DNA of 64,000 nt from an uncultured Planctomycetia bacterium (lineage in GTDB: Bacteria; Omnitrophota; Gorgyraeia; Duberdicusellales; 4484-171), in contig CAZAYU010000006.1 in assembly GCA_964489445.1 (NCBI GenBank), positions 53,518 to 117,517 of the forward strand. The letters are read 5' to 3'. Below, piece by piece: positions 31,648 to 62,759 of this stretch. The position numbers and the translations under genes were made by a program. Every line of letters begins with the position of its first letter. Positions within the stretch are counted from its first letter, which is position 1. The notes beneath the pieces are model-generated. The model was not told the origin of the DNA and made no database searches. It saw only the letters and a program-made list of their open reading frames with translations.

Positions 31648-31701
31648 GAGTAAATATAACTTTAGTGATCATCCAATATTTAATTAATACTAACACTCTT
31701 T

Positions 31702-35039: not shown

Positions 35040-35048
35040 TTTCCCTCT

Positions 35049-35993: not shown

Positions 35994-36005
35994 ATTTTTT
36001 TTAAA

Positions 36006-36890: not shown

Positions 36891-36915
36891 TAATCAACAT
36901 CAAAAAATACATTTA

Positions 36916-38604: not shown

Positions 38605-38613
38605 TATTGCCGA

Positions 38614-39718: not shown

Positions 39719-39880
39719 TTAAACTCCGGCGTAGATAAATGTTATCATCGCTGCAGGACCAATATAATACACTAAAAATGCTAAAAGAATAAGCACAATT
39801 AAAATTGGCGCTAAAAAATACATCTTATGCAGCCTAATCATATGAAACATCTCTTTAAGCATATATAAGATTTTTTTCAT
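39719..39880 (-). CDS. Small single-TM protein, DUF5989-like (SxtK-like)
   Basis: 53 aa, MKKILYMLKEMFHMIRLHKMYFLAPILIVLILLAFLVYYIGPAAMITFIYAGV. AGGAGG RBS 8 nt upstream of ATG. It is not in the ORF track because it is under 60 aa. The pattern (basic N-terminus, LPIL… helix, FIY C-terminus) matches DUF5989 proteins that accompany carbamoyltransferases. Confidence 0.5.
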   Translation of the reverse strand: MKKILYMLKEMFHMIRLHKMYFLAPILIVLILLAFLVYYIGPAAMITFIYAGV

Positions 39881-39889
39881 AGTATCCTC

Positions 39890-40117
39890 CTATGATTGTC
39901 TTAAGCTATTAATAGTATCGACTCCATATCCTTTTGCTTTAACCCAGGATGTATTATTTTTCTTATGTTTTTTGCGCAAAAATCGCCGACCGCAAACAAA
40001 CAAAAAGATTGTGCTAGCGCCTATGCCTAAAATATAGACAACCGTCAACAATACAGGAATCAATACCTTTTGTACTGTCTGGATATAGCTTTGAATTATT
40101 TTTTTTATTTTACTCAT
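39890..40117 (-). CDS. Small membrane protein (one TM, basic C-terminus)
   Basis: 75 aa. Its stop is 9 nt before the start of the DUF5989-like gene, so the two are tightly coupled. Confidence 0.4.
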   Translation of the reverse strand: MSKIKKIIQSYIQTVQKVLIPVLLTVVYILGIGASTIFLFVCGRRFLRKKHKKNNTSWVKAKGYGVDTINSLRQS

Positions 40118-40167: not shown

Positions 40168-41403
40168 TCAATTTTCAAAAAAATTATTCCTGACTACCAC
40201 ATCGTAAATATTTTGAGCCATGACTCCATACCCTTGAGCATTAGGATGTCCCCTGTCTTCTGATAAATATTCTTCTTTGTCTTTCCAAATTTCATTGAAT
40301 CTTTTTTCATTGTCAATGTAGGTAGCTCCATTATTTTCTGCAACTTCTTGCAAAATATAATTCATATCCTTGAAGGACCAAATATCCTCACATTTTGGAT
40401 AATTTTGGATTATTACGGGAATCTCTTTGTCTTTGCAAATATTGATCATCCTTGTAATATCCGAATTAACCCACCCTTGTAGCGTCTTCAAGTACAATAT
40501 TAAATCCTTTTCTCTTTTAATAAAATCTCTGACTATTTCACTTTCTTCTTCAAATTGCGATAAAAACTTAATATTCTCATTCCTTATTTCTGGTTTTTGA
40601 GAAAGAAAATTTGAAATAAAAAATCCTAACGGCTGATATTCATTAGGATTAATTTCTATTGCTTTCTTTGCGTATTCATACGCAATTTCATCATCATGAA
40701 GCATAAGAGCATATATTCTTGCAATTTGCCAATAAGATTCACAATACTCAGGCTCTAATTCCATTGCTATTTTATACCACCTTATCCCTTCCTCCCATTC
40801 TCCTTCATTTTCACAATTCCGTGCTTTATTCCAAGCATTATTAAACTCTTCTGATAAATGAATTTGTCTGTCTTTTTTTTGATCACTCTTAATCTGCTTT
40901 TGTATGTTTTTGGATAATAATTTTACCAATTTGTACACCTTAATCGACTGGATAGAATTATAAATTCTGGCACTTAATGTTTTCTCTTTTGTATATTTAA
41001 TATATCCTTGTGCATACCAAATATTTGCACCTCCAGCTAGAATAACTACTAAGTCCGGATTAAATTCTGCTATCCATCCATCAAATTTCGATAAAATTGA
41101 AAATGTATTGTACCCGCCTACCCCTCGGTTGATAACCTGACAATTTATCTTATTATTATCTGCATTTAACAATTTCTCTAATTGCCGGGGGTAACTTTTA
41201 TCAGAAGGAGCACCGCTACCATGAGTAAATGAATCCCCTACACATAGAATGATATAGCTATTAGCTTCTTTTTGATTGACTTTATCTCTAGCGGCATTTT
41301 TTAGACAAACATACCCTGTCAATCTCAAACCACCTTCAAGTGCTACCAAACAAACAACAATTCCTAGTAAAAAAACAATAAATTTACGTCTTAATAAAAA
41401 CAT
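40168..41403 (-). CDS. SGNH/GDSL hydrolase domain + TPR repeats, secreted/membrane-anchored (tandem duplicate copy A)
   Basis: N-terminal TM helix. Motifs CVGDSFTHGSGA (block I), GGAN (III) and DRGHPNAQGYG (V), with TPR-like C-terminal region. Confidence 0.7.
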   Translation of the reverse strand: MFLLRRKFIVFLLGIVVCLVALEGGLRLTGYVCLKNAARDKVNQKEANSYIILCVGDSFTHGSGAPSDKSYPRQLEKLLNADNNKINCQVINRGVGGYNTFSILSKFDGWIAEFNPDLVVILAGGANIWYAQGYIKYTKEKTLSARIYNSIQSIKVYKLVKLLSKNIQKQIKSDQKKDRQIHLSEEFNNAWNKARNCENEGEWEEGIRWYKIAMELEPEYCESYWQIARIYALMLHDDEIAYEYAKKAIEINPNEYQPLGFFISNFLSQKPEIRNENIKFLSQFEEESEIVRDFIKREKDLILYLKTLQGWVNSDITRMINICKDKEIPVIIQNYPKCEDIWSFKDMNYILQEVAENNGATYIDNEKRFNEIWKDKEEYLSEDRGHPNAQGYGVMAQNIYDVVVRNNFFEN

Positions 41404-42702
41404 TTATGCTGATAGTTCTAGGAATAAAATATATTCTATTAAAGGCCTGGACAAACTTTATTTTTCTAAATCGGAATTTAGCTTTTTTATATGTTTACAA
41501 ATATTTTGAGCCATGGCTCCATACCCTTGAGCATTAGGATGCCCCCTGTCTATCGATAAATATTCTTCTTTGTCTTTCCAAATTTCATTGAATCTTTTTT
41601 CATTGTCAATGTAGGTAGCTCCATTATTTTCTGCAACTTCTTGCAAAATATAATTCATATCCTTGAAGGACCAAATATCCTCACATTTTGGATAATTTTG
41701 GATTATTACGGGAATCTCTTTGTCTTTGCAAATATTGATCATCCTTGTAATATCCGAATTAACCCACCCTTGTAGCGTCTTCAAGTACAATATTAAATCC
41801 TTTTCTCTTTTAATAAAATCTCTGACTATTTCACTTTCTTCTTCAAATTGCGATAAAAACTTAATATTCTCATTCCTTATTTCTGGTTTTTGAGAAAGAA
41901 AATTTGAAATAAAAAATCCTAACGGCTGATATTCATTAGGATTAATTTCTATTGCTTTCTTTGCGTATTCATACGCAATTTCATCATCATGAAGCATAAG
42001 AGCATATATTCTTGCAATTTGCCAATAAGATTCACAATACTCAGGCTCTAATTCCATTGCTATTTTATACCACCTTATCCCTTCCTCCCATTCTCCTTCA
42101 TTTTCACAATTCCGTGCTTTATTCCAAGCATTATTAAACTCTTCTGATAAATGAATTTGTCTGTCTTTTTTTTGATCACTCTTAATCTGCTTTTGTATGT
42201 TTTTGGATAATAATTTTACCAATTTGTACACCTTAATCGACTGGATAGAATTATAAATTCTGGCACTTAATGTTTTCTCTTTTGTATATTTAATATATCC
42301 TTGTGCATACCAAATATTTGCACCTCCAGCTAGAATAACTACTAAGTCCGGATTAAATTCTGCTATCCATCCATCAAATTTCGATAAAATTGAAAATGTA
42401 TTGTACCCGCCTACCCCTCGGTTGATAACCTGACAATTTATCTTATTATTATCTGCATTTAACAATTTCTCTAATTGCCGGGGGTAACTTTTATCAGAAG
42501 GAGCACCGCTACCATGAGTAAATGAATCCCCTACACATAGAATGATATAGCTATTAGCTTCTTTTTGATTGACTTTATCTCTAGCGGCATTTTTTAGACA
42601 AACATACCCTGTCAATCTCAAACCACCTTCAAGTGCTACCAAACAAACAACAATTCCTAGTAAAAAAACAATAAATTTACGTCTTAATAAAAACATTTAT
42701 TT
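40206..42702. repeat. Direct tandem duplication: two ~1.2-kb units (40206..41408 and 41499..42702) with near-perfect identity, separated by a ~90-bp unique spacer
   Basis: Side-by-side reading shows only a few mismatches (e.g. catgactcc vs catggctcc). Identity ends at aaacatttat on one side and aaatattttgagcc on the other. Confidence 0.85.
41458..42696 (-). CDS. SGNH/GDSL hydrolase domain + TPR repeats (tandem duplicate copy B)
   Basis: The protein is identical to copy A except for the last ~30 residues. Confidence 0.7.
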   Translation of the reverse strand: MFLLRRKFIVFLLGIVVCLVALEGGLRLTGYVCLKNAARDKVNQKEANSYIILCVGDSFTHGSGAPSDKSYPRQLEKLLNADNNKINCQVINRGVGGYNTFSILSKFDGWIAEFNPDLVVILAGGANIWYAQGYIKYTKEKTLSARIYNSIQSIKVYKLVKLLSKNIQKQIKSDQKKDRQIHLSEEFNNAWNKARNCENEGEWEEGIRWYKIAMELEPEYCESYWQIARIYALMLHDDEIAYEYAKKAIEINPNEYQPLGFFISNFLSQKPEIRNENIKFLSQFEEESEIVRDFIKREKDLILYLKTLQGWVNSDITRMINICKDKEIPVIIQNYPKCEDIWSFKDMNYILQEVAENNGATYIDNEKRFNEIWKDKEEYLSIDRGHPNAQGYGAMAQNICKHIKKLNSDLEK

Positions 42703-44899: not shown

Positions 44900-46984
44900 C
44901 TAATCATAATGACAAAACTGCAAACAAGAATTTTTACATTGTTTAGTAATTAACCTCATTTCAGCCGCTTTTTGAGAATACCAAGCATCTTTCAAAGACA
45001 TATCATAGATATTACCACAGCTACCTTGGCAAAAAAATACTTCCGAGCTAGCTTTGCCATTCTTCCAGCAAGGTGCCGTAATAATAATACTTTTATGCCC
45101 GGCACAGCATGGTTTATCTATAGTCCTCTGTGAATAATAATCAAGTAAAAGGTCAAAACTAGGATTTGAATCGACTTTTAGATAAGAATAGCGATGCTCT
45201 TTTATTCTTTGAAAGTTATCACTTAAACATTTTAGTCCATAATTATCGGGCCATAACAAACTGTGCTTACATCCTTTTTTTGAGTATTGAGGATTAGTAT
45301 TATTAACCAGATAAGGAATAAAATTGATTGAATTTACTTTGAGAGCATCAGCTATTTGAGTTAATTTAAATAAATCATTACAATTTTTGCTGAATATTAC
45401 TGTCCCAATGCCTATAGATTTTTTTTTGTTTAATAAACGAAGATGCTTTATTGCTTCCATTGCATGGTCATAGCTACCTTTTCCCCTTATAAAGTCATTG
45501 CTTTCCTTTAATCCATCTAAGGAGAAATGAATATGGTCTATGTGCGATTTAGAAATCATTTCAACCATCTGTTTATTATAAAAACCATTTGTTGTTACTG
45601 AAATATTAAGGCCCAGGCTATTAATATAGCTGGCAATTTCAAATATTTCTGCTACTAAAAACGGCTCACCTCCACTTAACACAACAGTTTTGATATTCAT
45701 CATTCTTGCTTGTCTGGCTATATCAAATATCTTATTCTTATCTACCTTTATATTATTCTGGTTTATGTCTTTTTTTATACTGCAAATGCTACACTTTAAA
45801 TTACAAGATTCCGTAAGCGATATAATTATCATCTCTGGCGGAACAATAGGAACATTCAAAATTCGCGACATGCTGTATTTTCCATTAAGGCTTTTAGAAG
45901 CATACTGATTAAAGTTAGTTGTTTCACTACGCAACGGCCCACAACAATTACTACACGCCGGATCAATCATCTTTCCCGCTAATATTTTTTTCCGTAATGC
46001 ATTTAACGCTTTGCTATCCCATACCTTCAACAAACTATCGTCTATCTTTTCTATTTTATTCTTGATAAGCGAGCAAGGTGAAATGTATCCGTCTTCGGAA
46101 ATAACTAATGTTTTCCATAAATGGATACAATACAATTCCTTTTCATTAAAAATTGCAGACACTGTTGACGATTTTCTTTGAAAATTTTTATAAAGAGAAA
46201 TTATAAAATCAATATTGTGTTGTATCCTTGTTTCAAATCTTTTTTTTGATAAAATATCTATCAACTCTTTTTGCTGTTCATCAGAAAGAGACATGCCCCT
46301 TGCCCCTTCATGTACTTCCAGCAAAGGCATAAAATGTATCTCATCAACTCCCTGGTTAATACAATATTCCATAAATAGATCTAGATGGCCATAGTTCTCA
46401 TTAGAAATTACCGGGCAAACTCTGATTAATGTATAACTTATATGATTATTCTTTTTAGCCATTTGAATAAACTTAAAAATTTTATTTACTTTAGCAAAAC
46501 ATCCATTTACCCCACGTATCTTATCGTGAACTTTTTCTAAATGTGAATCAAGACTTATTCGTAGAATATCCCACCCAACAGCCACTAATCGTTGGGCAAT
46601 TTCGGCATTAAGAAGCAAGCCGTTAGTTATCAAAATACCCTTCATATTACAAGCCTTGATCATTTCTAAAATATCAATTAGCTGCGGATACAGAAAAGGT
46701 TCGCCTCCTCTACCTCCAATATTCCAAGCTAAAGAACCATTTCTGCTAGATTGTTCAACTAGCGAAAGCATCCTTTTTTGTGGTATTATTCCTTCAAAGC
46801 TATCAACTGTTTTTTGATCATACCCTCCACAATAAGCACAATGTGAATTACAATTGTAGGTAGGGAACCACTCAATCATCTCTGGCCCTTGTAAGTTGTA
46901 ATAGATTGATTTTGCTAACCTATCTAAAGGTGTTAAAAGTGTTTTATTTATTAGATTTTGATATTTCACCATTTCTTGTCCCAT
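44900..46984 (-). CDS. Double radical SAM protein (two tandem rSAM/SPASM modules in one polypeptide)
   Basis: Module 1 has TYNCNSHCAYCGG and GGRGGEPFLYPQ. Module 2 has ISLTESCNLKCSICSI and LSGGEPFLVAE, with C-terminal CKNSCLQFC. Confidence 0.75.
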   Translation of the reverse strand: MGQEMVKYQNLINKTLLTPLDRLAKSIYYNLQGPEMIEWFPTYNCNSHCAYCGGYDQKTVDSFEGIIPQKRMLSLVEQSSRNGSLAWNIGGRGGEPFLYPQLIDILEMIKACNMKGILITNGLLLNAEIAQRLVAVGWDILRISLDSHLEKVHDKIRGVNGCFAKVNKIFKFIQMAKKNNHISYTLIRVCPVISNENYGHLDLFMEYCINQGVDEIHFMPLLEVHEGARGMSLSDEQQKELIDILSKKRFETRIQHNIDFIISLYKNFQRKSSTVSAIFNEKELYCIHLWKTLVISEDGYISPCSLIKNKIEKIDDSLLKVWDSKALNALRKKILAGKMIDPACSNCCGPLRSETTNFNQYASKSLNGKYSMSRILNVPIVPPEMIIISLTESCNLKCSICSIKKDINQNNIKVDKNKIFDIARQARMMNIKTVVLSGGEPFLVAEIFEIASYINSLGLNISVTTNGFYNKQMVEMISKSHIDHIHFSLDGLKESNDFIRGKGSYDHAMEAIKHLRLLNKKKSIGIGTVIFSKNCNDLFKLTQIADALKVNSINFIPYLVNNTNPQYSKKGCKHSLLWPDNYGLKCLSDNFQRIKEHRYSYLKVDSNPSFDLLLDYYSQRTIDKPCCAGHKSIIITAPCWKNGKASSEVFFCQGSCGNIYDMSLKDAWYSQKAAEMRLITKQCKNSCLQFCHYD

Positions 46985-47000
46985 CTAACATCATGTCTAA

Positions 47001-49001
47001 TTAATAGTTATCTGGATTAATATGCAACCCCTGCAAACACGGTTCTTTACAATTTTTTATTCTCTCTAGTTCTTTTTGATAATCGCTTGAGTTAAAAACA
47101 TCTTTGAACCTCAATTTATATAATGGCATATTTATTTCTGTTCCACACAAATACGGCTTACCTTCAAAAGTAATATTTAATGATTCAAATCCGGTTAAGC
47201 AACGATTTGATTTTTTAAGCTTATTATCAAAATAGTCAATATATCGTTCAACAACCGAAACCGGACGAGCACTTATATCAGGGTTATTCTTTACATACTC
47301 AATAATATCCTTCAACTTATTTTTTTCCAACTCTGTTATCAAAAAATTCCCTTTAACATGGCATAGTTCATTGTTTGGAATAACTGGCTGGATGTCAACC
47401 CTTACCCCCTTATACTGTTTAAGCAACATTAAAAATGCAATATAATGCATGAAATTCTCCGGCATCAATATCGAACTTACTGTTAAAAAATTAATCCTCT
47501 GCAATTTATAATAATTATGATAAATTGCTTTAAAATTAAAAAACGACTTTTGAAAAGCGCCACTTCCACGAATAAAATCATGAGTATATTCCAGCCCATC
47601 GATTGAAAAAATTATTCCTATTTTCTTTAATTCTTCTTTTGAAAAATTATTCAAAAATTCCTCATTAAATAGAATCCCATTAGATATAATATTGACTGTA
47701 GCAATATCTGTTGCGCAAACAAATTTAATTATTTCCGGTAAATCTTTACGTAACAGCGGCTCTCCCCCACCAAATGTGATTCTTTCAATATTGCAATCAT
47801 TATTTAAATTAAGAATCAGCCTCTTCCACTCTTCCTTAGTAATTTCATCTTGGATATCAAATTTACCCTTACCAGTAGTGCACATAATGCATTTAAGATT
47901 ACAGCGATTAGTAATCGCAATATAAAACTCTGTGATATTGAACTCCTTTCTATCCATTATTACTTTCTTGCTGCTACTTTCTTCGTCTAAGCAACGTTTT
48001 AGCTCTTGATTAATTGCTTTAATTGGACTACAACAGCTATCCCAGCAAAGAGTGCTATCGTAATAGTGCTTATATTGTTCGATTAGTTTATAGTAAATAT
48101 CACCTAAGTCCTCATCGTAAACATTAAATGGTGTTTTTTGAGGATCACCGTTACACTTTAATACTTGCCCCTGACAATCAATTAAAATTTTATATAAGTA
48201 GAAAAAACATTTATTTTTTGCAATACTTGATATTTCCGAATTAATTTTTTGGATATCAGCGCAAGATTCATTGTCTAACCATTCTGCTCGGTTAAAATTA
48301 ACAGGAGTATCCATATTTTTTAATCTATATTTAAAATCTATTATCTGTTTGTCTGCAGGCAATAGCTCATTAAACTTTTGTGTCATTTTGACTAATTTGA
48401 TTAAAGTTACATTCTTTATTCTATAAAGCTCTGATTTTAAAAAATAATTTTCCACGTTATCATAGTTAATATTTGTCACTACCATATTAAGATTTAAATT
48501 AAGAGTTGGATTATTTTTAACGGTAAATTCTAAGAACCCTATTATTCTCTGTAAATAATCATCACCACCACAAGCCGGTTTTAATTTATACTGAATAGCT
48601 GGAACAAATGAATCTAAAGATATAGTCACTACATCCCAACCTATTTTTTTTATAAATTGCGCAAATTCTAAATCAAGTTTGCTACCGTTAGTCAATAAAG
48701 TACCAATGAGTTTTCTCTTTTTAATCTCTTCCATTAAAAATTTAATATCCTCGACTATTGTTGGTTCGCCAATTAAAGATGTTAACGAAATTTCCTGAGT
48801 TCCCATCTTTTTTGCAGCATTAAGAATTTTTATTAAAACATCTCTGGATAAATATTTATGCTCATTATGTTTTACACTTCCGGAGCAATACAAACAATTT
48901 AGATTACAAAAATTATTAATAACTAAATCAATGCAATAAGGTCCTTTTTCCACGCCTTTCAACCTTTTCTTAAACCAAGAATAAAACTCTTTTGAAATCA
49001 T
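47001..49001 (-). CDS. Double radical SAM protein (two tandem rSAM/SPASM modules)
   Basis: Module 1 has VINNFCNLNCLYCSGS. Module 2 has IAITNRCNLKCIMCTT and FGGGEPLLRKD, with C-terminal CKEPCLQG. Confidence 0.75.
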   Translation of the reverse strand: MISKEFYSWFKKRLKGVEKGPYCIDLVINNFCNLNCLYCSGSVKHNEHKYLSRDVLIKILNAAKKMGTQEISLTSLIGEPTIVEDIKFLMEEIKKRKLIGTLLTNGSKLDLEFAQFIKKIGWDVVTISLDSFVPAIQYKLKPACGGDDYLQRIIGFLEFTVKNNPTLNLNLNMVVTNINYDNVENYFLKSELYRIKNVTLIKLVKMTQKFNELLPADKQIIDFKYRLKNMDTPVNFNRAEWLDNESCADIQKINSEISSIAKNKCFFYLYKILIDCQGQVLKCNGDPQKTPFNVYDEDLGDIYYKLIEQYKHYYDSTLCWDSCCSPIKAINQELKRCLDEESSSKKVIMDRKEFNITEFYIAITNRCNLKCIMCTTGKGKFDIQDEITKEEWKRLILNLNNDCNIERITFGGGEPLLRKDLPEIIKFVCATDIATVNIISNGILFNEEFLNNFSKEELKKIGIIFSIDGLEYTHDFIRGSGAFQKSFFNFKAIYHNYYKLQRINFLTVSSILMPENFMHYIAFLMLLKQYKGVRVDIQPVIPNNELCHVKGNFLITELEKNKLKDIIEYVKNNPDISARPVSVVERYIDYFDNKLKKSNRCLTGFESLNITFEGKPYLCGTEINMPLYKLRFKDVFNSSDYQKELERIKNCKEPCLQGLHINPDNY

Positions 49002-49095: not shown

Positions 49096-52071
49096 TCAAT
49101 TACAAAGCACTTTAATTGCTTCCCTGATTCTTTCCTTTTGGCTATGCGCCTTTGAAGGAGAAAAAAAAGCATATCCGTCAGCTTTTGTTAAATAATTTAA
49201 AAGCAACCGTAAGTCATTGATTAAATATTGTTTTCCGCCACCAAGGCAATTGATTTTCAAATTATTGCTAGATCTTAATAATACTTCCATATTTTCGATT
49301 ATCAGAGAATAACTATTATTCATTAATTCCTGTAACGGTAACATCGGATACAATGATACATATTTTTCTAAGAAACGTAATTCTTGAAATATCAAAAATA
49401 AATTTCTTTTGCTACACAGCCGGCTGTGTATCTCTTCTGCCGAATCGGAAGACGGCCGTATAGAACAAAATTGAACACAATTATTTCGACAGTTTCTTAT
49501 TGTGTTTCTGAAATGTTCGGCATCTTTTGAAAACCATACAGTATCCCAAGAATCCTTGTCACCCTCTCCAAAATGCTGTAATTTTCTATCATTTGGCCCA
49601 TTACACACAAAGCATAATTTCTTTCCCACAAGTATTGCACGAGTAAAGCCAGCATAACATTTATCTACATATACAGCTTTTGAAAAATAAGTATATATTT
49701 TTTCACAAGGAATTTCTACATGTATTGGCATCCGTTTCTTTTTTTCTTCAATCTTTCTTAAAGCATCATCTAAATCCGGAAGTCGCTGTTCAGGTATCCA
49801 AAATTCGCTGCTTCTCATTCCTTTTAAGTCAGTATTGCACACGTAAGGTTGGACACAAATGCCACAAAGATCATACTCAAGACAAAAGTCTAGCATATCA
49901 TACATAGTATCAAGCGTTTGGTTCATTAAAATAGATAGAGTATTTACCCGCGGAAAAATCTTTTTTCTCCTTTTTTTCTCTACATTAATATAATTAATCG
50001 CTTCTATTGCTTGTTCAAAAACTCCTTCACCCCGCAATGAATTATGAATATCAGCATTTGGTGAATCTATAGAAATACCTAAGGTATCAAGCTCTACGTC
50101 TATCAATCTATCTATAATCTTTCTGCTTAAAATTGTTCCGTTAGTGTTAAGATGGACTATTATTCCAGGATAATAATCTTTTACATATTTTACAAGATTA
50201 AATATGTCTGGCCGCATTAATGCTTCTCCGCCAGTAAAATATACTTGCTTGAGATTACCTAGCTTATACACATCATCAATGCTCTTTTTAACATAAAACA
50301 TATCTAGTTCATCTTCGTTAGCATTCCAAACTCCGCACATTTTACAACGCAAATTACATTTTGTAGTAAGCAACAATTGATACATAAACGGCCCCACTAA
50401 AGGTTTATTTAGATAAAGCGAAAAATTATACAGATAATCTTCCTGAATATTTTTAAGAAAATCTAATTGTCCCTTGTCATCTTCTATTGAATAATTAAAG
50501 ATATTTACATCTTCCTCTAACATCAAACAACCTTTTGCCGAATCAATCTTGCTATCAATAATTTTGTCCTTTACTCCGTTATCGTTAGCATCTTTAGCTT
50601 TTATATAATAGGCTAAGGCTTGCTTGTGCTCATTATTCTCAATGCGCTTATCTCCTAGAAATAGATAATATTCAGATGGAGAGTAAAAACTATCTTCTTC
50701 CCGGCCAATATAATTATTGCAAAATTCTAGAATCTCTATTCTCTTTTGTAATGTATTCTCCCCATCTCTAGAGTGCCATCGCACAGAATTAAAATTATCT
50801 TCAAGCTCAATGCCAAAATCTCTTCTATTTTCATAGATATACGTTCCTTTAGCTATTACTAATAAATGAAAAAGAACCTTACCAATAAATCGTCTGTTAC
50901 GCTTAATAAATTCTGCTGTAAGGATAATATCCACATCTTCTTCTCCGGGAAGCCCTATTATCAACGTAACATCTGCTGTTATTCCTGCTGTATGAGTATT
51001 CTGTAGCACCAACTCTACCAATTCAGGCGTAAAACGTTTACCAATAGTCTTTAATGTTTTCGGGCTTAAACTTTCTAATCCGTAAGTAATGTGTGAGCAA
51101 CCTGCCATTTTCATTTTACTTAATAGATCTAAATTCATTTCTTCTCGTATACTAGCCTGCCCTCCCCAGTTAAGCTTTATTTTACTATCAACCAAACGAT
51201 CACAAAGACCATTCAATACTTTTAAATCTCCATTAATAAGAGAATCATTTAAAAATAGTGAACTAATACAAGGATGCTTATTGATTTGGTACATAATTTC
51301 ATCAAATATATTTCCTGCACTCCGTGTCCTGTATTTTTTCCAGTTTCTTGACTCACTGCAGAATATACATTTATTAATGCAGCCTCTACTAGTTGATATT
51401 GCTAACTTATGACTGTGAAACTCATCTAAATGATATTTATCAAAATTAAAATCAGAATAATCAGCAAAAGGCAATTCATCTAAATTCTCTATTAATTCTT
51501 CTTCCGGACAGCTTATGATATCATTGTTAATGTCTCGAAAAGCTATTCCATTTAAACCGCTAACCTTACCACATCTTTCTACTATAGCTACTATCTGAGG
51601 AAGAACTTTTTCTCCTTCAAGATAACAAATAGCATCTACAAACTGATTAGTATGTAATAAAGATGCCCCCATCTCAGACTTAGTACAATGCGGTCCGCCA
51701 AAAATAATAATTTTATCGCTATTCTCCTCTTTAACCCTCCGAGCTATTTCTTCAGAAAAAAGACGATTTAATCCCGTAATGGTAAACCCGATTGTTTTAT
51801 AACCAATACTAATAATTGACTTTACACATTCTTCTATAAACTCCCCGTATAAATTGATTATTTTTTTAACAAAATCATCATTATACCAATCTGTGGGCCT
51901 ATCATATAAGGAGTTTTTCCTCAGCCCAACTAAATAATTATAAAATTCAATATTAAAATCTAAGCATTTTACCTTATAGCCTTCTGCCTGGCATGCTGCC
52001 TTAAGCAAGGCTAGACTATAGGGTGGTGAATGTATCGACCAACAAGGAGCTTGAACAATGACCAGGCTCAT
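49096..52071 (-). CDS. Fusion protein: cobalamin-binding (class B) radical SAM + family-B SPASM radical SAM + ~120-aa C-terminal tail
   Basis: MSLVIVQAPCW, …FGGPHCTKSE…, STSRGCINKCIFCSE. The second module has LLTTKCNLRCKMCGV and FTGGEALMRPD, with CRNNCVQFC. Confidence 0.75.
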   Translation of the reverse strand: MSLVIVQAPCWSIHSPPYSLALLKAACQAEGYKVKCLDFNIEFYNYLVGLRKNSLYDRPTDWYNDDFVKKIINLYGEFIEECVKSIISIGYKTIGFTITGLNRLFSEEIARRVKEENSDKIIIFGGPHCTKSEMGASLLHTNQFVDAICYLEGEKVLPQIVAIVERCGKVSGLNGIAFRDINNDIISCPEEELIENLDELPFADYSDFNFDKYHLDEFHSHKLAISTSRGCINKCIFCSESRNWKKYRTRSAGNIFDEIMYQINKHPCISSLFLNDSLINGDLKVLNGLCDRLVDSKIKLNWGGQASIREEMNLDLLSKMKMAGCSHITYGLESLSPKTLKTIGKRFTPELVELVLQNTHTAGITADVTLIIGLPGEEDVDIILTAEFIKRNRRFIGKVLFHLLVIAKGTYIYENRRDFGIELEDNFNSVRWHSRDGENTLQKRIEILEFCNNYIGREEDSFYSPSEYYLFLGDKRIENNEHKQALAYYIKAKDANDNGVKDKIIDSKIDSAKGCLMLEEDVNIFNYSIEDDKGQLDFLKNIQEDYLYNFSLYLNKPLVGPFMYQLLLTTKCNLRCKMCGVWNANEDELDMFYVKKSIDDVYKLGNLKQVYFTGGEALMRPDIFNLVKYVKDYYPGIIVHLNTNGTILSRKIIDRLIDVELDTLGISIDSPNADIHNSLRGEGVFEQAIEAINYINVEKKRRKKIFPRVNTLSILMNQTLDTMYDMLDFCLEYDLCGICVQPYVCNTDLKGMRSSEFWIPEQRLPDLDDALRKIEEKKKRMPIHVEIPCEKIYTYFSKAVYVDKCYAGFTRAILVGKKLCFVCNGPNDRKLQHFGEGDKDSWDTVWFSKDAEHFRNTIRNCRNNCVQFCSIRPSSDSAEEIHSRLCSKRNLFLIFQELRFLEKYVSLYPMLPLQELMNNSYSLIIENMEVLLRSSNNLKINCLGGGKQYLINDLRLLLNYLTKADGYAFFSPSKAHSQKERIREAIKVLCN

Positions 52072-52201: not shown

Positions 52202-53203
52202 TTATACATCGTCACAGAAGCATGGTAACAAACATGGCCATGCGCATCTTTTTACCTGATTTCTTGCCTGAATTATTTCCTTGCTCATAAGGACATCTTT
52301 TAATAACGTGTTTTTTAAACTTCCATACACAGAAAAACACGTTCGACATTTTCCATCATTAGCCACCAGAATTGTTCTGTCCGCAGACAAACATTTAGCA
52401 TTTTCCGGCAATAATCTGTTGCAGTAATAGTCTCTCATTAACAACAAGTTGGTAATTGAATTCTTTATAAAATCCGGTTTTTCTTTTTTTAACTCTATCA
52501 GTTTACTTAAGGAATCATCCAGTATATTTAGCCGATCTTTAAGAACCCAAAATTCAGATTTCTTTCGTTCATTCATCCTTAGATTATTGGGAAGCAGCGC
52601 TTGAAATTGTAATGAATCTGCACCTAAAGATTCAACAAAAGCAGCAATGTCCGCTAATTCTTCTAAATTATGATTCAAAATTATAGTAATTACGTTAAAT
52701 TTTACCTGCGAATTACTTTTCTTCAAGCAAGAAAGAACACCAAGCCCTTCTACTGTTTTCTTCCAAGCATTATCATAGTTGCGGATATAATTATGGGTAT
52801 CTGCTTTTAATGAGTCTAAAGAAAAGACCAACGAAATAGTATTATCCAGGATATAGGGCTCTAATCTGTTAATATTTTCCGCAATCATTATCCCATTTGT
52901 CAAAACACCTAAATTTTTAATATTTATATTTCTTGCGTAATCAAATATTTCATATATATCTTTTCTTATTAGTGGCTCACCTCCAGAAAGAGCAATTTCA
53001 TTTATCCCCAGTTTTTTAGCTTGATCAAGCACCCGCTGGACATGATAAATATCTATATCTTTTTCGGAAATACCAGTTTTCCATATATCACAAATACGAC
53101 ACTTTAGATTGCAGGAATGTGTAATATCTAAGATGATAAGCCGAGGCAGATAAAGATTATTAACTTTGTTTAACATTGCCAGACTGAATTCGGAAATATT
53201 CAT
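52202..53203 (-). CDS. Radical SAM/SPASM protein (family B)
   Basis: DITHSCNLKCRICDI followed by LSGGEPLIRKD, with C-terminal CAWPCLLPC. The track start (53242) is TTG and overlaps the upstream GT2; ATG (MNISEF) is at 53203. Confidence 0.7.
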   Translation of the reverse strand: MNISEFSLAMLNKVNNLYLPRLIILDITHSCNLKCRICDIWKTGISEKDIDIYHVQRVLDQAKKLGINEIALSGGEPLIRKDIYEIFDYARNINIKNLGVLTNGIMIAENINRLEPYILDNTISLVFSLDSLKADTHNYIRNYDNAWKKTVEGLGVLSCLKKSNSQVKFNVITIILNHNLEELADIAAFVESLGADSLQFQALLPNNLRMNERKKSEFWVLKDRLNILDDSLSKLIELKKEKPDFIKNSITNLLLMRDYYCNRLLPENAKCLSADRTILVANDGKCRTCFSVYGSLKNTLLKDVLMSKEIIQARNQVKRCAWPCLLPCFCDDV

Positions 53204-54107
53204 GAATATTTCCAAAAATATAAAAAATTTTATGAAGAGCAAAATAAATATAAACAGTTATTCGTCGAGCCCCTGTCCCCTTACTCTGATGTTTAAGAAA
53301 TTGTTTACCTAATATACAGCTAAATCGTGGAATTTTAATAAGATTGCCTAATGTCGATAGCCAAAAAGAACTTCTTCCTATTTTTAGTTCTTTTAATAAA
53401 ACATGACTATTGTTTTTATATTTTGTTAATAGGTTACCTCTTCCGTAAATATAAGCTTGTTCAAGAAAGCTTATGAATGTATCCTCGCGATAATGAATAA
53501 CTCTTATTTTTTTATCCCAGATAAATCTATGGCCATCCTTGAACAGACGCCAAAAAAAATCTAAATCTTCGCCTCCCGGCAAAGGAAAATCTTTATCAAA
53601 TTTATATTTCTCAAAAATTTCTCTCTTAAGAGAAACATTGCAAGTAGGAAAAAATATTATTTCTTCTTTGCCATCAATATTGGTATTAATACTACACGTA
53701 CTTAAGAATTGACTAACCAATACAGCAATCTTAGGCGATCGAGAATAAGTACCTCCACCTACAGCCGAGACATCGGGGTTATCCTTATGTATTTTAACCA
53801 TCAATTCCACCCAATTTTTCTCAGCAACACAATCATCATCAGTGAATAAAACTATTTTTCCTTGGGCAGCTTCTACTCCTAAATTTCTTGCTACAGCTGG
53901 ACCCCTAGAAAGTTGAGAAACATAAACTAAATTACCAAAGTTAAATTTTATTTGAAAAATTAACTTCTTTATCTCTTTATTTGCTCGATCATCAACAACT
54001 ATAACCTCAAACTTATTTAGAGGATAGTTCTGCTTAGCTAAAGAACTCAAGCAATCAATTAATTTTTTCTTTCTGCCACACGTAGGTACTACTACCGAAA
54101 CTTCCAT
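53160..54107 (-). CDS. Glycosyltransferase family 2
   Basis: VVVPTCGRKKKLIDCL…VIVVDD…LFTDDDC GT-A motifs. Confidence 0.75.
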   Translation of the reverse strand: MEVSVVVPTCGRKKKLIDCLSSLAKQNYPLNKFEVIVVDDRANKEIKKLIFQIKFNFGNLVYVSQLSRGPAVARNLGVEAAQGKIVLFTDDDCVAEKNWVELMVKIHKDNPDVSAVGGGTYSRSPKIAVLVSQFLSTCSINTNIDGKEEIIFFPTCNVSLKREIFEKYKFDKDFPLPGGEDLDFFWRLFKDGHRFIWDKKIRVIHYREDTFISFLEQAYIYGRGNLLTKYKNNSHVLLKELKIGRSSFWLSTLGNLIKIPRFSCILGKQFLKHQSKGTGARRITVYIYFALHKIFYIFGNIHEYFRIQSGNVKQS

Positions 54108-54111: not shown

Positions 54112-56841
54112 TTACTCTCCGTTAACCATTATTTCACCTTTTGAATATATATACTCTCCAGGCATTAAACTAATCGGAACATCATCTAAATATTGTAAAA
54201 CTCTACCACGAAAATTAAGATCTGTGTTTACTATGTTAAGCTTGTCCTGCTGACTTCTAAAAAAGGGGGTAAATATTATTTCGGGAAAATAACTTTCCTT
54301 TTTTCTAATCCTCTTTACCCCAGCATAGAACTTATTATCCTCCGACAAACAACATGAAGAAATAACTCCCCAATCATCGTCAACATTTCCATCAAAAAGA
54401 GGAAATGTCCCTTCATTTTTATTGAATGCCCATTGTTTATATTCTTCAGAAAGCATAATATTTGTCTGCTGGCGATCAATTCCAATTTCTTTATTAACTC
54501 TCATTTTAATTGAAAACGCAATAACACCCTCCCGTACTAATCTTAAATTCCAATATTGTTCTATTGGCAAATGCATCCATCTGCCAATAGAATTAATTTC
54601 GGAATCATTACCCTGAACACTCCATACAGCATGCGTACAAGAATCGTACCATCTGCCTTGCGACCGCAAAGAGGTATAAAAACCAAGCTGCTTTGTTAAT
54701 TTTTTATCATTCCAAAATATTTCTCCTCTCCCATTTGTTAAATTATACTTTAATTTTTTTTTCGCCACCATCCAAGAATCATTGGTAGTATTTTGTTGTT
54801 TAGCGTCATATTTTAAGGAAATTCTTACCTCAAAACACCTATGCCTACCTTGCGCAAACTTTCTTTTATCCTCCGGTTCAACACTTTGGATAGACAATAC
54901 TCTTGTCCGGCAAGACATAGCTGAATTAAAAATTTTAGCAAAATTATGCGGTTTTTTAGAGAAATCTAATAAAATATCCGGCAAATGTTTATCTAAACTA
55001 GACAAAATAATACTTTCATCGGGAATACATCTTTGCAACATATCCTCTTCGCGCTCTGAAAAAATATCCGAAAATGCACCCTTACCATACTTACTAAAAT
55101 AATATTTGTATCTTTCTGATAACTCAATCCTGATAAACTTTTCCTCAATCTCTAATTCATCTTTTATCTCGATATCTAAAGTAAAAATAAAATAATCTTC
55201 ACTAATAATTTCTATTTCCCAGATACAAATAACAGGTAAATACGCACTCTCACACCTGGCAATTATTTTTTTATTGCCTTCTTTTTTTATCTCCCAGAAA
55301 CTAGATTCAAAATTATACACCCGGCCTGCACAACGTAAAAAAAAGCTTACACAATTACCTTTGACTAAAGATAAATCATTAAAGAACGGAATGACTTTCC
55401 CATTATTAAATGTTAACCTTAACCTCTCTTGTGATATTGTTGTTTCGTCTTGAATATTCTTAAGATAAGCAGGCACATCTTTGATTCCAATAATGATTTT
55501 TCCGCTAAAAAATGTTAACCGTTTCCCTTTATTTTTAGAATAATTTTGTACATTCGCTATTTGAAATTGCAAAATTCGCGAGGAAATGAAACAATCTGAA
55601 TTTAATATTTGCCCATAGACAGGTAAAGCAGATAATGATTGTTCAACAATAAAAGAAGGCATACTCTCAGCAAGGCTATTCTCGGTTATTACTCCGATAC
55701 ATCTTCTAGAAATATTATCTTCCAATAAAGGCATCCATTGGTTATTACCTTCAATTATGGAGGGAAAATTATCTTTTTCGCCTAGAGAAGTAAACCATTG
55801 CTGATATTTATCAACTAAAATAAAATCAACACATCCCTGTTCAATTTCCATCATTTGTTCACTCTCAATCCCAATATCTATCTTTATCTCGCCGGAATCC
55901 ATCAATTCTATTTTCCAAACAACAATAAGCTCTATTTGATATATCCGCCCCTTAGCTGTAATCCGCTTATCACTTTCTTCTTCAATCTCCCAGTAGGCTT
56001 GAAAAGAATTGTACCGTTTATCTCGCGTAAAGAAATTAATATGTATTCCGGAAGAATTAGTAATAGGCTGATCGGCCCAATTAATAAATAAGCGGCCATT
56101 ATTAAATACAATACTTAAATTATCTTTTTTTAGGATCCCGACACCCTCCTTTGCCCCGACTACTTGTGTATAAAGAGCGATGGTCTTTTTCACCTCAGAA
56201 TCCTTAATGAGCCTACCCTCTTTAAGCAAAATAGCTCTCTTGCAAAGCCTCTGCAGCATCCCCATTTCATGGGTAACGTAAACAATTGTTGCACCTTTTT
56301 CTCTGATTTCAAATATTTTCTTTATGCATTTTTTTTGAAAAGACTCATCTCCCACCGCTAAAGTATCATCGATTAATAATATTTCCGGATCCAGACAAAT
56401 AGCAATCGAAAACGCCAAACGGACAAACATTCCTTGAGAGTAATACTTAACCGGAGCATTAATAAATTTCCCAATTGCGGCAAAATTTTCAATATCTTCG
56501 TATTTCTGATCAATTTCCTGTCGTGTAAATCCAAAAAAAGTGCTGTTTAAGAAAATATTATCTTTTCCGCTTAATTCCTGCTGAAAACCAGCTCCCAAAT
56601 CTAAAAGCCCGGTTACTCTCCCAGAAACACTCACCTCGCCTCGATCAGGGACGAGTATTCCGGCAATTAACTTTAAAATAGTAGATTTTCCTGCCCCGTT
56701 TTCTCCGATTATTCCCAGACTTTGCCCCTTCTCAACATCAAATGTTATATCCTTTAATGCCCAAAAATTATCCCAAGAAAGTTTACCATCAATAATAAAC
56801 TTTATTCGAAATATTTCCCAAACATCTTTAAACGTGATCAT
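54112..56841 (-). CDS. wzt: ABC transporter ATP-binding protein, Wzt/TagH-like, with ~650-aa C-terminal extension built from three tandem ~200-aa domains
   Basis: Walker A GENGAGKST, signature YSQGMF, Walker B ILLIDD, H-loop THE. Three repeats follow (…FNNGRLFINW…, …FNNGKVIPFF…, …GRGEIFWNDKKL…). Confidence 0.75.
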   Translation of the reverse strand: MITFKDVWEIFRIKFIIDGKLSWDNFWALKDITFDVEKGQSLGIIGENGAGKSTILKLIAGILVPDRGEVSVSGRVTGLLDLGAGFQQELSGKDNIFLNSTFFGFTRQEIDQKYEDIENFAAIGKFINAPVKYYSQGMFVRLAFSIAICLDPEILLIDDTLAVGDESFQKKCIKKIFEIREKGATIVYVTHEMGMLQRLCKRAILLKEGRLIKDSEVKKTIALYTQVVGAKEGVGILKKDNLSIVFNNGRLFINWADQPITNSSGIHINFFTRDKRYNSFQAYWEIEEESDKRITAKGRIYQIELIVVWKIELMDSGEIKIDIGIESEQMMEIEQGCVDFILVDKYQQWFTSLGEKDNFPSIIEGNNQWMPLLEDNISRRCIGVITENSLAESMPSFIVEQSLSALPVYGQILNSDCFISSRILQFQIANVQNYSKNKGKRLTFFSGKIIIGIKDVPAYLKNIQDETTISQERLRLTFNNGKVIPFFNDLSLVKGNCVSFFLRCAGRVYNFESSFWEIKKEGNKKIIARCESAYLPVICIWEIEIISEDYFIFTLDIEIKDELEIEEKFIRIELSERYKYYFSKYGKGAFSDIFSEREEDMLQRCIPDESIILSSLDKHLPDILLDFSKKPHNFAKIFNSAMSCRTRVLSIQSVEPEDKRKFAQGRHRCFEVRISLKYDAKQQNTTNDSWMVAKKKLKYNLTNGRGEIFWNDKKLTKQLGFYTSLRSQGRWYDSCTHAVWSVQGNDSEINSIGRWMHLPIEQYWNLRLVREGVIAFSIKMRVNKEIGIDRQQTNIMLSEEYKQWAFNKNEGTFPLFDGNVDDDWGVISSCCLSEDNKFYAGVKRIRKKESYFPEIIFTPFFRSQQDKLNIVNTDLNFRGRVLQYLDDVPISLMPGEYIYSKGEIMVNGE

Positions 56842-56847
56842 ACTATT

Positions 56848-57642
56848 TTACAATTTTTTAAATAATTCCTTCTCAAAATACGAAAAAACTTTAAATCCAA
56901 GAATTAAACTGACAATAGCCCACAAGAATGTACCTGCAAATATAGAAATGCTAGGCAAATTTCCATTAAAAATAACATCACGATAATATTGAATATAGCA
57001 ACTCATAGGATTTATACTTATTACCCACCTAAGCTGTTCGGGAAGCATCTCCGAAGAATAGAATATCGGAGTTATCCAGAACCAAAGCATAAGCATAACC
57101 CCTAGAAAATGTGTTATGTCACGATAAACTACATTAAGAACAGAAAGCATAAGCGAAATACCGCAAATAAACAAAAAATGCAAAAATAAAACGATAAACA
57201 AAAAAGGGACCAAACTAATTATTTTAAAATTAAAAAATAAAAATACAAAATATAGTGTGCAAAACCCAGCAATAAATTCCAAAAAATTTGCCAGAACAAC
57301 AGATATCGGAAATATTTCTTTAGGTATATTGAACTGTTGCAAAAGCCCTCGCTGATTTATAATCGACCCTGCAGCATCAAACAGAGAACTAGAAAAAAAC
57401 ATCCAAGGGATAATACCAGCAAGAACGAAAAGAGGAAAATTTTTGATTTCCGCCTTAAAAATAAAAGTGAACACAAAAGTTATTACAAGCATTAATAATA
57501 AAGGATTAACTACTGCCCAAAATACCCCTAAAAAGGCATTCGAATATTTTGCCTTCACCCTAGAAAAGGCAATTTTCCATAAATTGCCACGATAAGAATA
57601 TATTTTAGTTATTCTTTCCCTTAACATAATACTAAAACGCAT
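56848..57642 (-). CDS. wzm: ABC-2 type transporter permease (Wzm-like)
   Basis: 264 aa, six hydrophobic segments. It sits immediately upstream of the Wzt-like ATPase, separated by 6 nt. Confidence 0.7.
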   Translation of the reverse strand: MRFSIMLRERITKIYSYRGNLWKIAFSRVKAKYSNAFLGVFWAVVNPLLLMLVITFVFTFIFKAEIKNFPLFVLAGIIPWMFFSSSLFDAAGSIINQRGLLQQFNIPKEIFPISVVLANFLEFIAGFCTLYFVFLFFNFKIISLVPFLFIVLFLHFLFICGISLMLSVLNVVYRDITHFLGVMLMLWFWITPIFYSSEMLPEQLRWVISINPMSCYIQYYRDVIFNGNLPSISIFAGTFLWAIVSLILGFKVFSYFEKELFKKL

Positions 57643-62160: not shown

Positions 62161-62279
62161 ATCATTCTACTTGGTTATTTTAGATTTCTGTAGGATATCA
62201 AAGTAATATTATTTTTCTTAGCTATATTACTCATTGCAAAATTCATTAAAAAATTATAGTCTTTAATTCCAAATTTTTT

Positions 62280-62759
62280 AACATTGAAATGTCCCAATCA
62301 CTTGGATAATCACTTGTTTCCAAGGATGGACTATCAATTCAATTGTACCATCTTTAATACTGTTGATAGAATAAATAAATTGTTTCTCTCTGTATACTTT
62401 TTTAGAATGAAAGCAACAAATAAAGTCCGGATGTATCAAATTAGATAATTCTACTAATTTTTATTTATCTGTGACCAACCAATAACCCTCTTGAAATAAT
62501 TAAAAGCTTTACACATTACACTCTTTGGCCAAAACATAAACTTATTAGCATATCGAATCCTCTTTATACCAAAACGCTTAGCAAGCCTTATTAATACATC
62601 TAATATCAAAGTTAGCTGGTGAAGATGCTTTTCCGTATCTAAATGTGTTATAGTTATCCCTCTATCCGATACCTTTTTAATCTGTGCATATCCCTCTTTA
62701 TAGAGATCATCCGCATTTATGATAAGTTTGTCATTATTAATTCTTGATTTTATAACACC
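62280..62759 (-). pseudogene. Decayed YdjC-family deacetylase paralogue (internal deletion + in-frame stop, no start codon)
   Basis: Minus-strand translation gives DKLIINADDLYKEG fused directly to ITHLDTEKHLHQLTLILDVL…KRIRY (compare intact ORF 36006..36890: LIISADDFGLTEG … VTHLDTEKHLHIFPSILKVI…NRIRF). A stop follows near 62455, and after it a further region …IELIVHPW… matches the YdjC C-terminus. Confidence 0.45.

Follow-up and report, generated by a model that had tools for sequence, protein, structure and literature searches.

Here we examined a stretch of 64,000 nucleotides (nt), referred to below as the window, from contig CAZAYU010000006.1 of an uncultured member of the Omnitrophota (assembly GCA_964489445.1). 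One of its genes encodes a protein of 991 amino acids (aa) in which a cobalamin (B12)-domain radical S-adenosylmethionine (SAM) enzyme (rSAM) is followed by a second rSAM of twitch/SPASM-like type (Table 1). Comparison with related loci indicates that this is a genuine, lineage-specific fusion of two genes that were ancestrally adjacent in a conserved run. The best overall explanation, in which we have fair confidence, is that the fusion serves radical tailoring of a lipid-linked glycan. The window has a GC content of ~33%, and every one of its genes is on the minus strand.

An original prediction, made from the sequence without database searches, had described the protein as a fusion of 991 aa. 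Its gene is a single uninterrupted open reading frame (ORF), which starts with ATG and runs for 991 codons without an internal stop. Three-frame translation revealed no competing ORF of more than 55 aa in the other two frames across 49096-52071, and the domain boundary is free of long homopolymers. Both cluster motifs were found where predicted, CINKCIFC at aa 231-238 and CNLRCKMC at aa 572-579. Mapping of domain boundaries with hidden Markov models, which the prediction had suggested as a check, placed a B12-binding domain at aa 80-160 and found two stretches matching Radical_SAM (PF04055, 131 bits summed in Pfam). The two halves show the hallmarks of the radical SAM superfamily, namely a CxxxCxxC motif, a conserved FTGGE and confident structural models, and all residues invariant in both family alignments are kept in the 991-aa protein. 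Each half is also separately homologous to standalone families, matching standalone genes of the window as well as genes of the relatives.

For the comparison of gene order we used the loci L003, L004/L005 and L016 together with three loci from Omnitrophota metagenome-assembled genomes (MAGs), L007-L009; L017 was also examined. In five related loci (L003, L004/L005, L007, L009 and L016) the B12-rSAM and the rSAM are separate adjacent genes, with the former 16-50 nt upstream of the latter. Residues 1-513 of the fusion align with an entire 513-aa B12-rSAM (55% identity), and residues 524-965 align with a 480-aa rSAM starting at the latter's first residue (60% identity). Because the halves match whole genes, and 513 and 480 residues add up to 993 against the 991 observed, we interpret the fusion as a head-to-tail join of neighbouring genes. 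In the relatives the junction consists of a stop codon, a spacer of 16-48 nt with an AAGGA-type ribosome-binding site and then ATG-TGG. In the window the corresponding sequence reads AAA GGT TGT TTG ATG TTA GAG GAA GAT GTA AAT ATC TTT AAT TAT TCA, and the peptide segment spanning the junction is GCLMLEEDVNIF. The residual spacer is still recognisable (window TTAGAGGAAG; relatives TTAAAGGAC or TTAAAGGAG). It measures 18 nt and is in frame, compared with 16 nt in L004 and L007; GAGGAAG at 50511-50517 looks like a relic of the relatives' ribosome-binding site, and the ancestral ATG start is now ATC (I524, 50500-50502). The fusion would have arisen when the B12-rSAM gene lost its stop codon, the short spacer, now 18 nt, came to be read in frame, and the old start codon decayed from ATG to ATC. 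As a separate observation, a Shine-Dalgarno-like motif lies upstream of only 2 of the 46 annotated starts in the window, whereas relatives show AAGGAG-type sites at the B12-rSAM/rSAM spacer.

Since a single T separates the fused gene from a pair of overlapping genes, and the split in the adjacent gene pair discussed below is also one T away from the fused state, an indel artefact merited testing. In this alternative the locus consists of two translationally coupled genes (~515 and ~475 aa), and a spurious T in the TTT at 50525-50527 masks a TGA stop overlapping an ATG (TGTTGATG). Removal of one T from TGTTTGATG gives TGT TGA TG, a textbook stop/start overlap, with product lengths near the 513 and 480 aa of the relatives; the neighbouring split between a family 2 glycosyltransferase (GT2) and an rSAM likewise differs by one T from the fused relatives. 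However, the exact 991-aa product was called on 6 contigs from NCBI, JGI/IMG, Logan and ENA assemblies, the longest of 122 kb. The 56-nt junction is identical in L010, L011 and L012, which are k141-named ENA contigs from different samples, and in the JGI contig L015. The samples with these contigs have the accessions ERZ27316330, ERZ27315617 and ERZ27316143 (ENA) and 3300022882 (JGI). Over 23 kb, L015 has 90 differing positions and 10 gaps relative to the window (99.55% identity) and so represents another strain; inside the fusion gene there are 0 nucleotide differences. Six contigs share an identical GT2|rSAM split site, and calls of the 315-aa GT2 product were made on 17 contigs. The already altered start codon, the in-frame spacer of different length and the adjacent 666- and 694-aa fusions, which follow the same trend, also speak against two genes. 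We therefore regard an artefact as exceedingly improbable. A hidden frameshift or stop, which the prediction had named as something that would disprove its claim, is effectively refuted by the same junction and product in independent assemblies, and the single gene stands. The 991-aa fusion is not an assembly artefact; because the same sites recur in independent assemblies, both it and the neighbouring GT2/rSAM fission are real features of the population.

Several other searches were uninformative. An exact-pattern scan of the metagenome contig collection for the junction gave 0 matches and a protein-based scan of that collection 0 relatives, and both also missed the known JGI contig L006. A single-sequence protein scan of the genome contig collection, which returned 0 relatives, was equally uninformative. 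A word-index protein search with the junction segment (aa 440-600) found no match, and the same type of search missed fragment P0036, the representative of the 991-aa protein's own database cluster.

Table 1. Coordinates of the fusion gene, its modules and its partner genes in the window
Feature	Coordinates	Strand	Basis
Whole fusion gene, B12-domain rSAM::twitch/SPASM-like rSAM (stop codon included)	49096..52071	-	Single ORF; recurrence of product and junction in independent assemblies
N-half, aa 1-513, class-B radical SAM module	50533..52071	-	Orthologous end to end (55% identity) to standalone 513-531-aa proteins
Rossmann-like domain of cobalamin-binding type, ~aa 1-190 (FGGPH aa 124-128, DAICYLEGE aa 146-154)	51502..52071	-	PF02310, alignment, fold match
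Radical SAM core 1, ~aa 215-405 (C231-x3-C235-x2-C238 at nt 51358-51381)	50857..51429	-	Pfam, alignment, motif
C-terminal helical (TPR-like) subdomain of N-half, aa 440-513	50533..50754	-	Kept to the very end of standalone orthologues; model helices 441-514
Fusion junction, aa 514-523, GCLMLEEDVN (former stop-codon region and intergenic spacer, read in frame)	50503..50532	-	Spacer alignment with L003, L004, L007, L009
C-half, aa 524-991, radical SAM module	49099..50502	-	Orthologous to standalone 439-515-aa family; model
Radical SAM core 2, ~aa 562-780 (C572-x3-C576-x2-C579 at nt 50335-50358; GGE motif)	49732..50388	-	Pfam, alignment
Twitch/SPASM-like auxiliary-cluster region, aa 800-872	49456..49674	-	Alignments, model secondary structure, fold matches
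Family-specific helical tail, aa 878-991	49099..49440	-	Conserved in 439-515-aa orthologues, absent from tandem-array paralogues
Upstream partners GT2 (53160-54107, 315 aa) and rSAM (52202-53242)	52202..54107	-	One 632-655-aa GT2::rSAM protein in all relatives examined
Downstream partners, 666 aa (47001-49001; 349+323 aa in relatives) and 694 aa (44900-46984; 367+333 aa in relatives)	44900..49001	-	Gene-by-gene comparison
Wzt-type ABC ATPase (909 aa) and Wzm ABC-2 permease	54112..57642	-	Head of conserved rSAM run in related loci

The N-half has the layout of class-B enzymes, with a Rossmann-like domain ahead of the radical SAM core, as seen from a marginal PF02310 match, the fold and the family profile. 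The B12-binding match at aa 80-160 scores 33.9 bits against a Pfam cut-off of 32.1 and is thus a marginal pass; the hallmark GGP and D-x5-E-G-E are kept, and G125, G126, D146 and E152 are invariant in the family alignment. The AlphaFold model of this half (predicted local distance difference test score, pLDDT, 88.6) has as its top Foldseek matches TsrM, CysS, OxsB, MgmA, AprD4 and TokK (template modelling scores of 0.6-0.67, probability 1.0). The same six enzymes were recovered at 1e-41 to 1e-25 when the family profile was compared with PDB sequences, a step for which the profile was required, since a single-sequence search with the N-half gave no match there. Like TsrM, TokK, CysS, OxsB, MgmA/QCMT, GenK, Fom3 and the diol-dehydratase AprD4, the N-half combines the Rossmann-like N-domain with a CxxxCxxC TIM-barrel core and a helical C-domain. 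It differs from these class-B enzymes in its identity of only 13-18%, in having no NCBIfam equivalog and in being fused to a second rSAM, and its use of cobalamin is putative. Its best NCBIfam match, TIGR03975 (rSAM_ocin_1), belongs to a C-methyltransferase subfamily acting on peptides made by ribosomes and modified after translation (RiPPs) and scores 157.4 bits, below the cut-off of 281.85; TIGR03471 (HpnJ) scores 118.1 bits, below its cut-off of 577.6. Since no NCBIfam cut-off is reached, the N-half is a class-B-type rSAM outside any named subfamily. It likely uses cobalamin. Standalone B12-rSAMs of the window to which it is related lie at 25534-26988 (31% identity, 1e-69) and 27794-29974 (1e-55).

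The C-half was used separately as a query and returned ~20 standalone proteins of 439-515 aa that are about 54-63% identical over 91-99% of its length, tail included. It was predicted to be of the type found in the tandem array at 18835-23330, and we confirmed homology with those genes (22287, 21203, 20054 and 18835) at 1e-23 to 4e-37, the best being 22287; it is also homologous to the rSAM at 52202-53242. No paralogous match among window proteins was found for the tail (aa 870-991) and linker, and the helical tail of ~110 aa is specific to the family of 480-aa orthologues. The designation of this module as SPASM was overstated. Pfam SPASM (PF13186) gave no match even at E<=10 and is also missing from the precomputed Pfam lists of the close orthologues P0037-P0056. 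The auxiliary-cluster region has a beta-hairpin between C805 and C823, followed by C861-x3-C865-x3-C869. The resulting pattern, C805-x10-G-x6-C823 ... C861-x3-C865-x3-C869 (Cx17C...Cx3Cx3C), holds 5-6 Cys when C745 is counted, whereas the seven-Cys SPASM motif that accommodates two auxiliary [4Fe-4S] clusters (CX9-15GX4C ... CX2CX5CX3C ... C) is not present. Among 31 family members there is no variation at C805, C823 and C865 and almost none at C861 and C869; C745 is invariant among close orthologues. Several window paralogues do score with PF13186, with Cys columns that line up with the Cys of the C-half. From the Cys counts, the C-half probably carries one auxiliary cluster.

In the model of the C-half (pLDDT 88.9), residues 288-298 (C-half numbering) form the hairpin and residues 326-336 a helix, and its N-terminus is a single helix without a RiPP recognition element (RRE). 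Its Foldseek neighbours are SuiB, BlsE, SkfB, DesII, CteB, viperin, anSME, MoaA and PqqE at 14-19% identity, with a probability of 1.0 for SuiB, BlsE, SkfB, CteB, anSME and PqqE. The post-core beta-hairpin, helix and Cys-loop are those of the broad SPASM/twitch clade, and because this layout occurs with a pattern of 5-6 Cys and without PF13186 we call the module twitch/SPASM-like. The core, the Cys-flanked beta-hairpin, the helix and the Cys-rich loop are shared with anSME, SuiB, CteB, PqqE, SkfB, BtrN, BlsE and MoaA (Foldseek E-values of 1e-12 to 1e-13), whereas the C-half differs from these enzymes by its 5-6 rather than 7 Cys, the lack of PF13186 and of an RRE, and the extra ~110-aa helical tail. 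Its best NCBIfam match is TIGR04317, an rSAM maturase of tungsten-cofactor oxidoreductases (94.2 bits, below the cut-off of 380).

The window holds another protein of comparable architecture, encoded at 4711-7491 (926 aa). The C-half of that protein is of another family, with 977-2215 and 2241-3473 as paralogues. Since the N-halves of the two proteins are only 28% identical and their C-half families differ, the 991-aa protein was correctly described as a second, independent fusion with a different partner family.

The relatives place both modules in a conserved run of genes. It begins with Wzm, Wzt (~905 aa), in some cases an rSAM, GT2::rSAM (632-655 aa), B12-rSAM (513-531 aa) and rSAM (439-484 aa), and continues with rSAM349, rSAM323, rSAM367, rSAM333, rSAM361, rSAM346, rSAM411, rSAM382, rSAM387 and a GT2. 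The Wzm/Wzt arrangement heads the rSAM run in L001, L003, L004, L007, L008 and L009, and L016 keeps the Wzt end only. In the window the tandem array at 18835-23330 is the distal end of this run, parted from the rest by an inserted block of ~20 kb. GT2 and rSAM are fused in every relative examined; in the window they overlap in different frames, and the rSAM ORF is 346 aa long with its likely start at the ATG at 53203 or later. One extra T (AGTTAATAA as opposed to AGT AAT AA) makes a TAATAA stop, while colinearity is exact. As the same site was observed in 6 independent contigs, the split is a real gene fission beside a gene fusion. Three successive pairwise fusions, of 991, 666 and 694 aa, have occurred in the lineage of the window, and the 666-aa fusion is also present in L006, L010, L011 and L015.

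The proposal that the cobalamin-dependent and SPASM-type reactions are functionally coupled holds in part. A functional link between the two modules is supported by their adjacency in five loci, their fusion here and a web of alternative fusions, and an obligate one is not: in 2 of 7 related loci, L008 and L017, the orthologue of the C-half directly follows GT2::rSAM and there is no B12-rSAM, so that the two steps need not be mechanistically dependent. In L008, P0054 and P0056 the orthologue of the C-half is instead fused to a different downstream rSAM. P0002 (1161 aa, from an Omnitrophica MAG) is a B12-rSAM::GT2::rSAM protein; its three parts show 42-44% identity to the N-half, GT2 (53160) and rSAM (52202) of the window. 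Because of these alternative fusions and of the two loci without a B12-rSAM, the B12 step appears to be an accessory decoration, not an obligate partner.

The neighbourhood is that of glycan export, with the Wzm permease, Wzt ATPase and glycosyltransferases of an ABC-transporter-dependent system. The nucleotide-binding domain of Wzt matches the solved Wzt-type ABC transporter chains 8dku, 7k2t and 6amx at 1e-65; 8dku and 7k2t we take to be the Aquifex aeolicus O-antigen transporter. The window's Wzt (54112-56841) has a C-terminal extension of ~670 aa, made up of about three internal repeats of ~200 aa, for which neither a Pfam nor a PDB sequence match was found. The tail (aa ~505-726) of the 726-aa B12-rSAM encoded at 27794-29974 is homologous to this repeat (30% identity over 220 aa, 1e-19). 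Because of this homology we suspect that one and the same polymer is recognised by the exporter and by at least one rSAM, and the repeat may be a shared polymer-binding module. At least 8 glycosyltransferases are encoded in the window, among them four or five GT2, two GT4/GT1, an ArnC/PgfS-like polyprenyl-phosphate transferase and an ArnT/PMT_2-like membrane transferase. They are accompanied by a DegT aminotransferase, a WbuX amidotransferase, a YdjC deacetylase, a carbamoyltransferase, AsnB, a nucleoside diphosphate (NDP)-sugar epimerase, a flippase-like protein and TPR proteins. No ligase or acceptor-step gene was found within the 64 kb; the compact related locus L001 (from an Omnitrophica MAG) does contain a Glycos_transf_4 (WecA-type) and a Wzy_C (WaaL/ligase-type) gene.

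Several further features of the window were noted. A block at 29953-39636, missing from the core run of the relatives, holds an ArnC/PgfS-like polyprenyl-phosphate GT2, a YdjC/HpnK-like deacetylase, an ArnT/PMT_2-like transferase, an HpnJ-like B12-rSAM (208 bits, below the cut-off), AsnB, a carbamoyltransferase and a WbuX amidotransferase, and by its gene content it looks like an Arn-like or HpnIJK-like branch modifying a lipid-linked aminosugar. An amine-oxidase/NAD_binding_8 flavoprotein at 15032-16327, weakly similar to UDP-galactopyranose mutase and phytoene desaturase, is conserved beside the Wzm/Wzt-rSAM run in L001, L003, L004, L008 and L009. Two tandem GDSL/SGNH-plus-TPR genes (411 and 412 aa) at 40168-42696 encode proteins that are seemingly identical until near the C-terminus. 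Between these and the WbuX-like gene (38614-39636) are two small predicted membrane proteins of 53 and 75 aa (39719-40117), the former with a weak DUF5989 match in the L015 copy. Finally, the 576 nt at 62161-62736, between a GT2 (61417-62160) and a PMT_2-like gene, have no sizeable ORF, only short fragmentary frames, and could be a decayed gene or a regulatory region.

Because of the Wzm/Wzt exporter, the glycosyltransferases, the rSAM::GT2 fusions and the lack of a precursor peptide, RRE/PqqD or peptidase, we read the fusion as a two-station enzyme acting on a glycan. The 991-aa enzyme would provide two stations in a multi-enzyme radical tailoring line in the cytoplasm, whose substrate, before export by Wzm/Wzt, would be a polyprenyl-linked sugar polymer or the activated sugars from which it is made. 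At an unactivated sugar carbon the N-half would catalyse an alkylation, most likely a C-methylation, or a rearrangement, with the help of SAM, a [4Fe-4S] cluster and probably also cobalamin. With a second SAM/[4Fe-4S] site and one auxiliary cluster, the C-half would abstract hydrogen from the same or a neighbouring residue, resulting in oxidation, epimerisation or dehydration, the type of reaction catalysed by the carbohydrate-active BtrN, NeoN, DesII and BlsE. The fusion would hold both active sites on one substrate molecule. The chemistry of both halves is inferred by analogy with distant homologues, for which there are precedents. C-methylation of carbohydrates is known for class-B enzymes (PMC12931638) and radical SAM epimerisation of a sugar for NeoN (PMC10991966). 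For a B12-domain rSAM of the HpnI/HpnK/HpnJ pathway a lipid-linked aminosugar has been proposed as the substrate, and HpnJ and calditol synthase are precedents for action on lipid-linked sugars (PMC13459092).

Some observations weigh against such a two-station glycan enzyme. The proposed chemistry rests on distant homology, with 14-19% identity to any solved structure, and every NCBIfam match of the 991-aa protein is far under its cut-off. The B12-binding score is marginal, as noted above, and AprD4, a close solved relative of the N-half, is a diol-dehydratase that is not known to need cobalamin; for this reason the fold alone is no proof that the N-half uses the cofactor. The structural neighbours of the C-half that modify peptides (SuiB, SkfB, CteB, anSME and PqqE) are as numerous as those acting on sugars or nucleotides, and no initiating phosphoglycosyl transferase was found within the window.

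The substrate could instead be a ribosomal peptide. The original prediction had offered methylation followed by a crosslink as one possibility, a sequence of events borrowed from RiPP chemistry, where B12-rSAM C-methyltransferases and SPASM enzymes forming thioether or C-C crosslinks are found. The RiPP C-methyltransferase subfamily is the best NCBIfam match of the N-half, the C-half weakly matches the peptide maturases WgkB, StsB and ScmF, its Foldseek neighbours include SuiB, SkfB and CteB, and TPR proteins are present in the cluster. However, these scores are far under the curated cut-offs (157 vs 282; 70 vs 650), the N-terminus of the C-half is a single helix rather than an RRE, rSAM modules are fused to GT2, and the exporter is of Wzm/Wzt type. 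The precursor gene and the RRE/PqqD in or beside the maturase that mark a RiPP system were not seen: no plausible precursor ORF lies near the rSAM run, around which the gaps are <150 nt, and Pfam detected no RRE/PqqD or peptidase among window ORFs of >=150 aa, shorter ones being inspected by eye only. We consider a RiPP maturase, methylating and then crosslinking a peptide, very unlikely in this glycan-export context.

It could also be that the rSAM run modifies a hopanoid-, ladderane- or tetraether-like lipid or the polyprenyl carrier, and that the glycosyltransferases only add a head group. The Omnitrophota belong to the Planctomycetes-Verrucomicrobia-Chlamydiae (PVC) group, which is known for unusual lipids. 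The weak matches to HpnJ, rSAM_ladder_B12, HpnR, Tes (glycerol dialkyl glycerol tetraether synthase) and HpnH, the conserved flavoprotein related to amine oxidases and phytoene desaturases, and the HpnK-like, HpnJ-like and flippase-like genes of the window are in keeping with this. On the other side, all of the matches are below cut-offs, and neither the window nor the relatives showed genes for a squalene/hopene cyclase, a polyprenyl synthase or fatty-acid synthesis. The core run of the relatives lacks the inserted HpnI/J/K-like block, and long C-terminal extensions on Wzm/Wzt transporters typically go with polymer export. We judge lipid tailoring to be rather unlikely. Action on soluble nucleotide-sugar precursors, with the fusion channelling an unstable intermediate between consecutive steps, is a sub-variant of the preferred glycan explanation. 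It agrees with the fact that the nearest sugar-active neighbours of the C-half (BlsE, DesII, viperin and MoaA) all bind nucleotides or nucleotide-sugars, and with the DegT, epimerase and WbuX-type NDP-sugar enzymes in the window. The homology of one B12-rSAM (27794-29974) with the Wzt repeat argues instead that some rSAMs bind polymer, an rSAM is fused to GT2, and at least 11 rSAMs far exceed any NDP-sugar route known to us; we find this variant unlikely.

If the lipid-linked glycan is the substrate, the fusion could be one station of an undescribed 'radical assembly line', in which 11-20 rSAM modules, fused to each other and to glycosyltransferases and conserved in Omnitrophota, functionalise a lipid-linked polysaccharide before its export by Wzm/Wzt. 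We put this forward tentatively, as something for which the odds are somewhat adverse. Similarities to characterised systems are partial. The window's trio of GT2, deacetylase and B12-domain rSAM (35049, 36006, 31702) matches the lipid-anchored aminosugar set of HpnI-HpnK-HpnJ and calditol synthase (PMC13459092). The system of the 991-aa protein differs in that the N-half scores 118 bits against the HpnJ cut-off of 577, that no hopanoid genes are present, that the anchor is presumed to be polyprenyl and that export is by Wzm/Wzt. The O-antigen Wzm/Wzt pathways share with the window the ABC-2 permease, the Wzt ATPase and many glycosyltransferases, and one relative has WaaL-like and WecA-like genes; however, none of those characterised contains a run of 11-20 rSAM modules, and the window's Wzt has its threefold-repeated extension of ~670 aa. 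In the maturation of the proteusin polytheonamide several rSAM and B12-rSAM enzymes decorate one polymer by epimerisation and C-methylation. There the substrate is a ribosomal peptide with a leader, whereas in the window a peptide precursor is absent and a glycan is the most likely polymer.

An exhaustive HMMER search for fusions elsewhere, which had also been suggested, identified 56,728 relatives. No orthologous fusion was found outside this population; analogous ones do occur, since 12 of the best 150 cluster representatives carry a B12-rSAM and a MoaA/SPASM-like rSAM on one chain, and the architecture is therefore recurrent in sequence space. The order of modules is the same as in the 991-aa protein in P0108 (849 aa) and P0215 (907 aa). 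These database analogues are only 22-36% identical and are independent fusion events, not orthologues. Multi-rSAM polyproteins reach 2,689 aa (P0085-P0228), and P0085 (2,331 aa) matches the query in five stretches. Some of the P0085-P0228 chains were also seen to carry GT2 or methyltransferase domains. Such poly-rSAM megaenzymes appear to be widespread and unstudied, and we know of no experimental study of the database multi-rSAM polyproteins P0108, P0215, P0002 and P0085. The literature searched contained no account of this type of cluster or of a B12-rSAM::SPASM fusion, and a 2026 review of B12-rSAM enzymes mentions neither fusions nor SPASM.

A fusion of two rSAM modules is not rare by itself, and the rSAM-rich Wzm/Wzt cluster, with its ~20 radical enzymes, is of more interest than the single fusion. 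Radical SAM tailoring of cell-surface polysaccharides is almost unexplored, and in this locus and its relatives more than 10 rSAM enzymes directly follow an O-antigen-type exporter, with fusions to glycosyltransferases. The fusions serve as a natural Rosetta stone for partner paralogues, pairing the B12-rSAM with the rSAM of the 480-aa family and the GT2 with the rSAM at 52202, and the 991-aa protein offers a single expressible polypeptide for studying two consecutive steps. A radical assembly line, if it exists, would perform many C-H functionalisations (C-methylation, epimerisation, deoxygenation, possibly ring contraction or C-C crosslinks) and would be a carbohydrate counterpart of the hypermodification of polytheonamide-type peptides. 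Such a hypermodified glycan would extend the known chemistry of bacterial surface polymers and may have a bearing on surface presentation by the Omnitrophota, which are ultra-small and possibly host-dependent.

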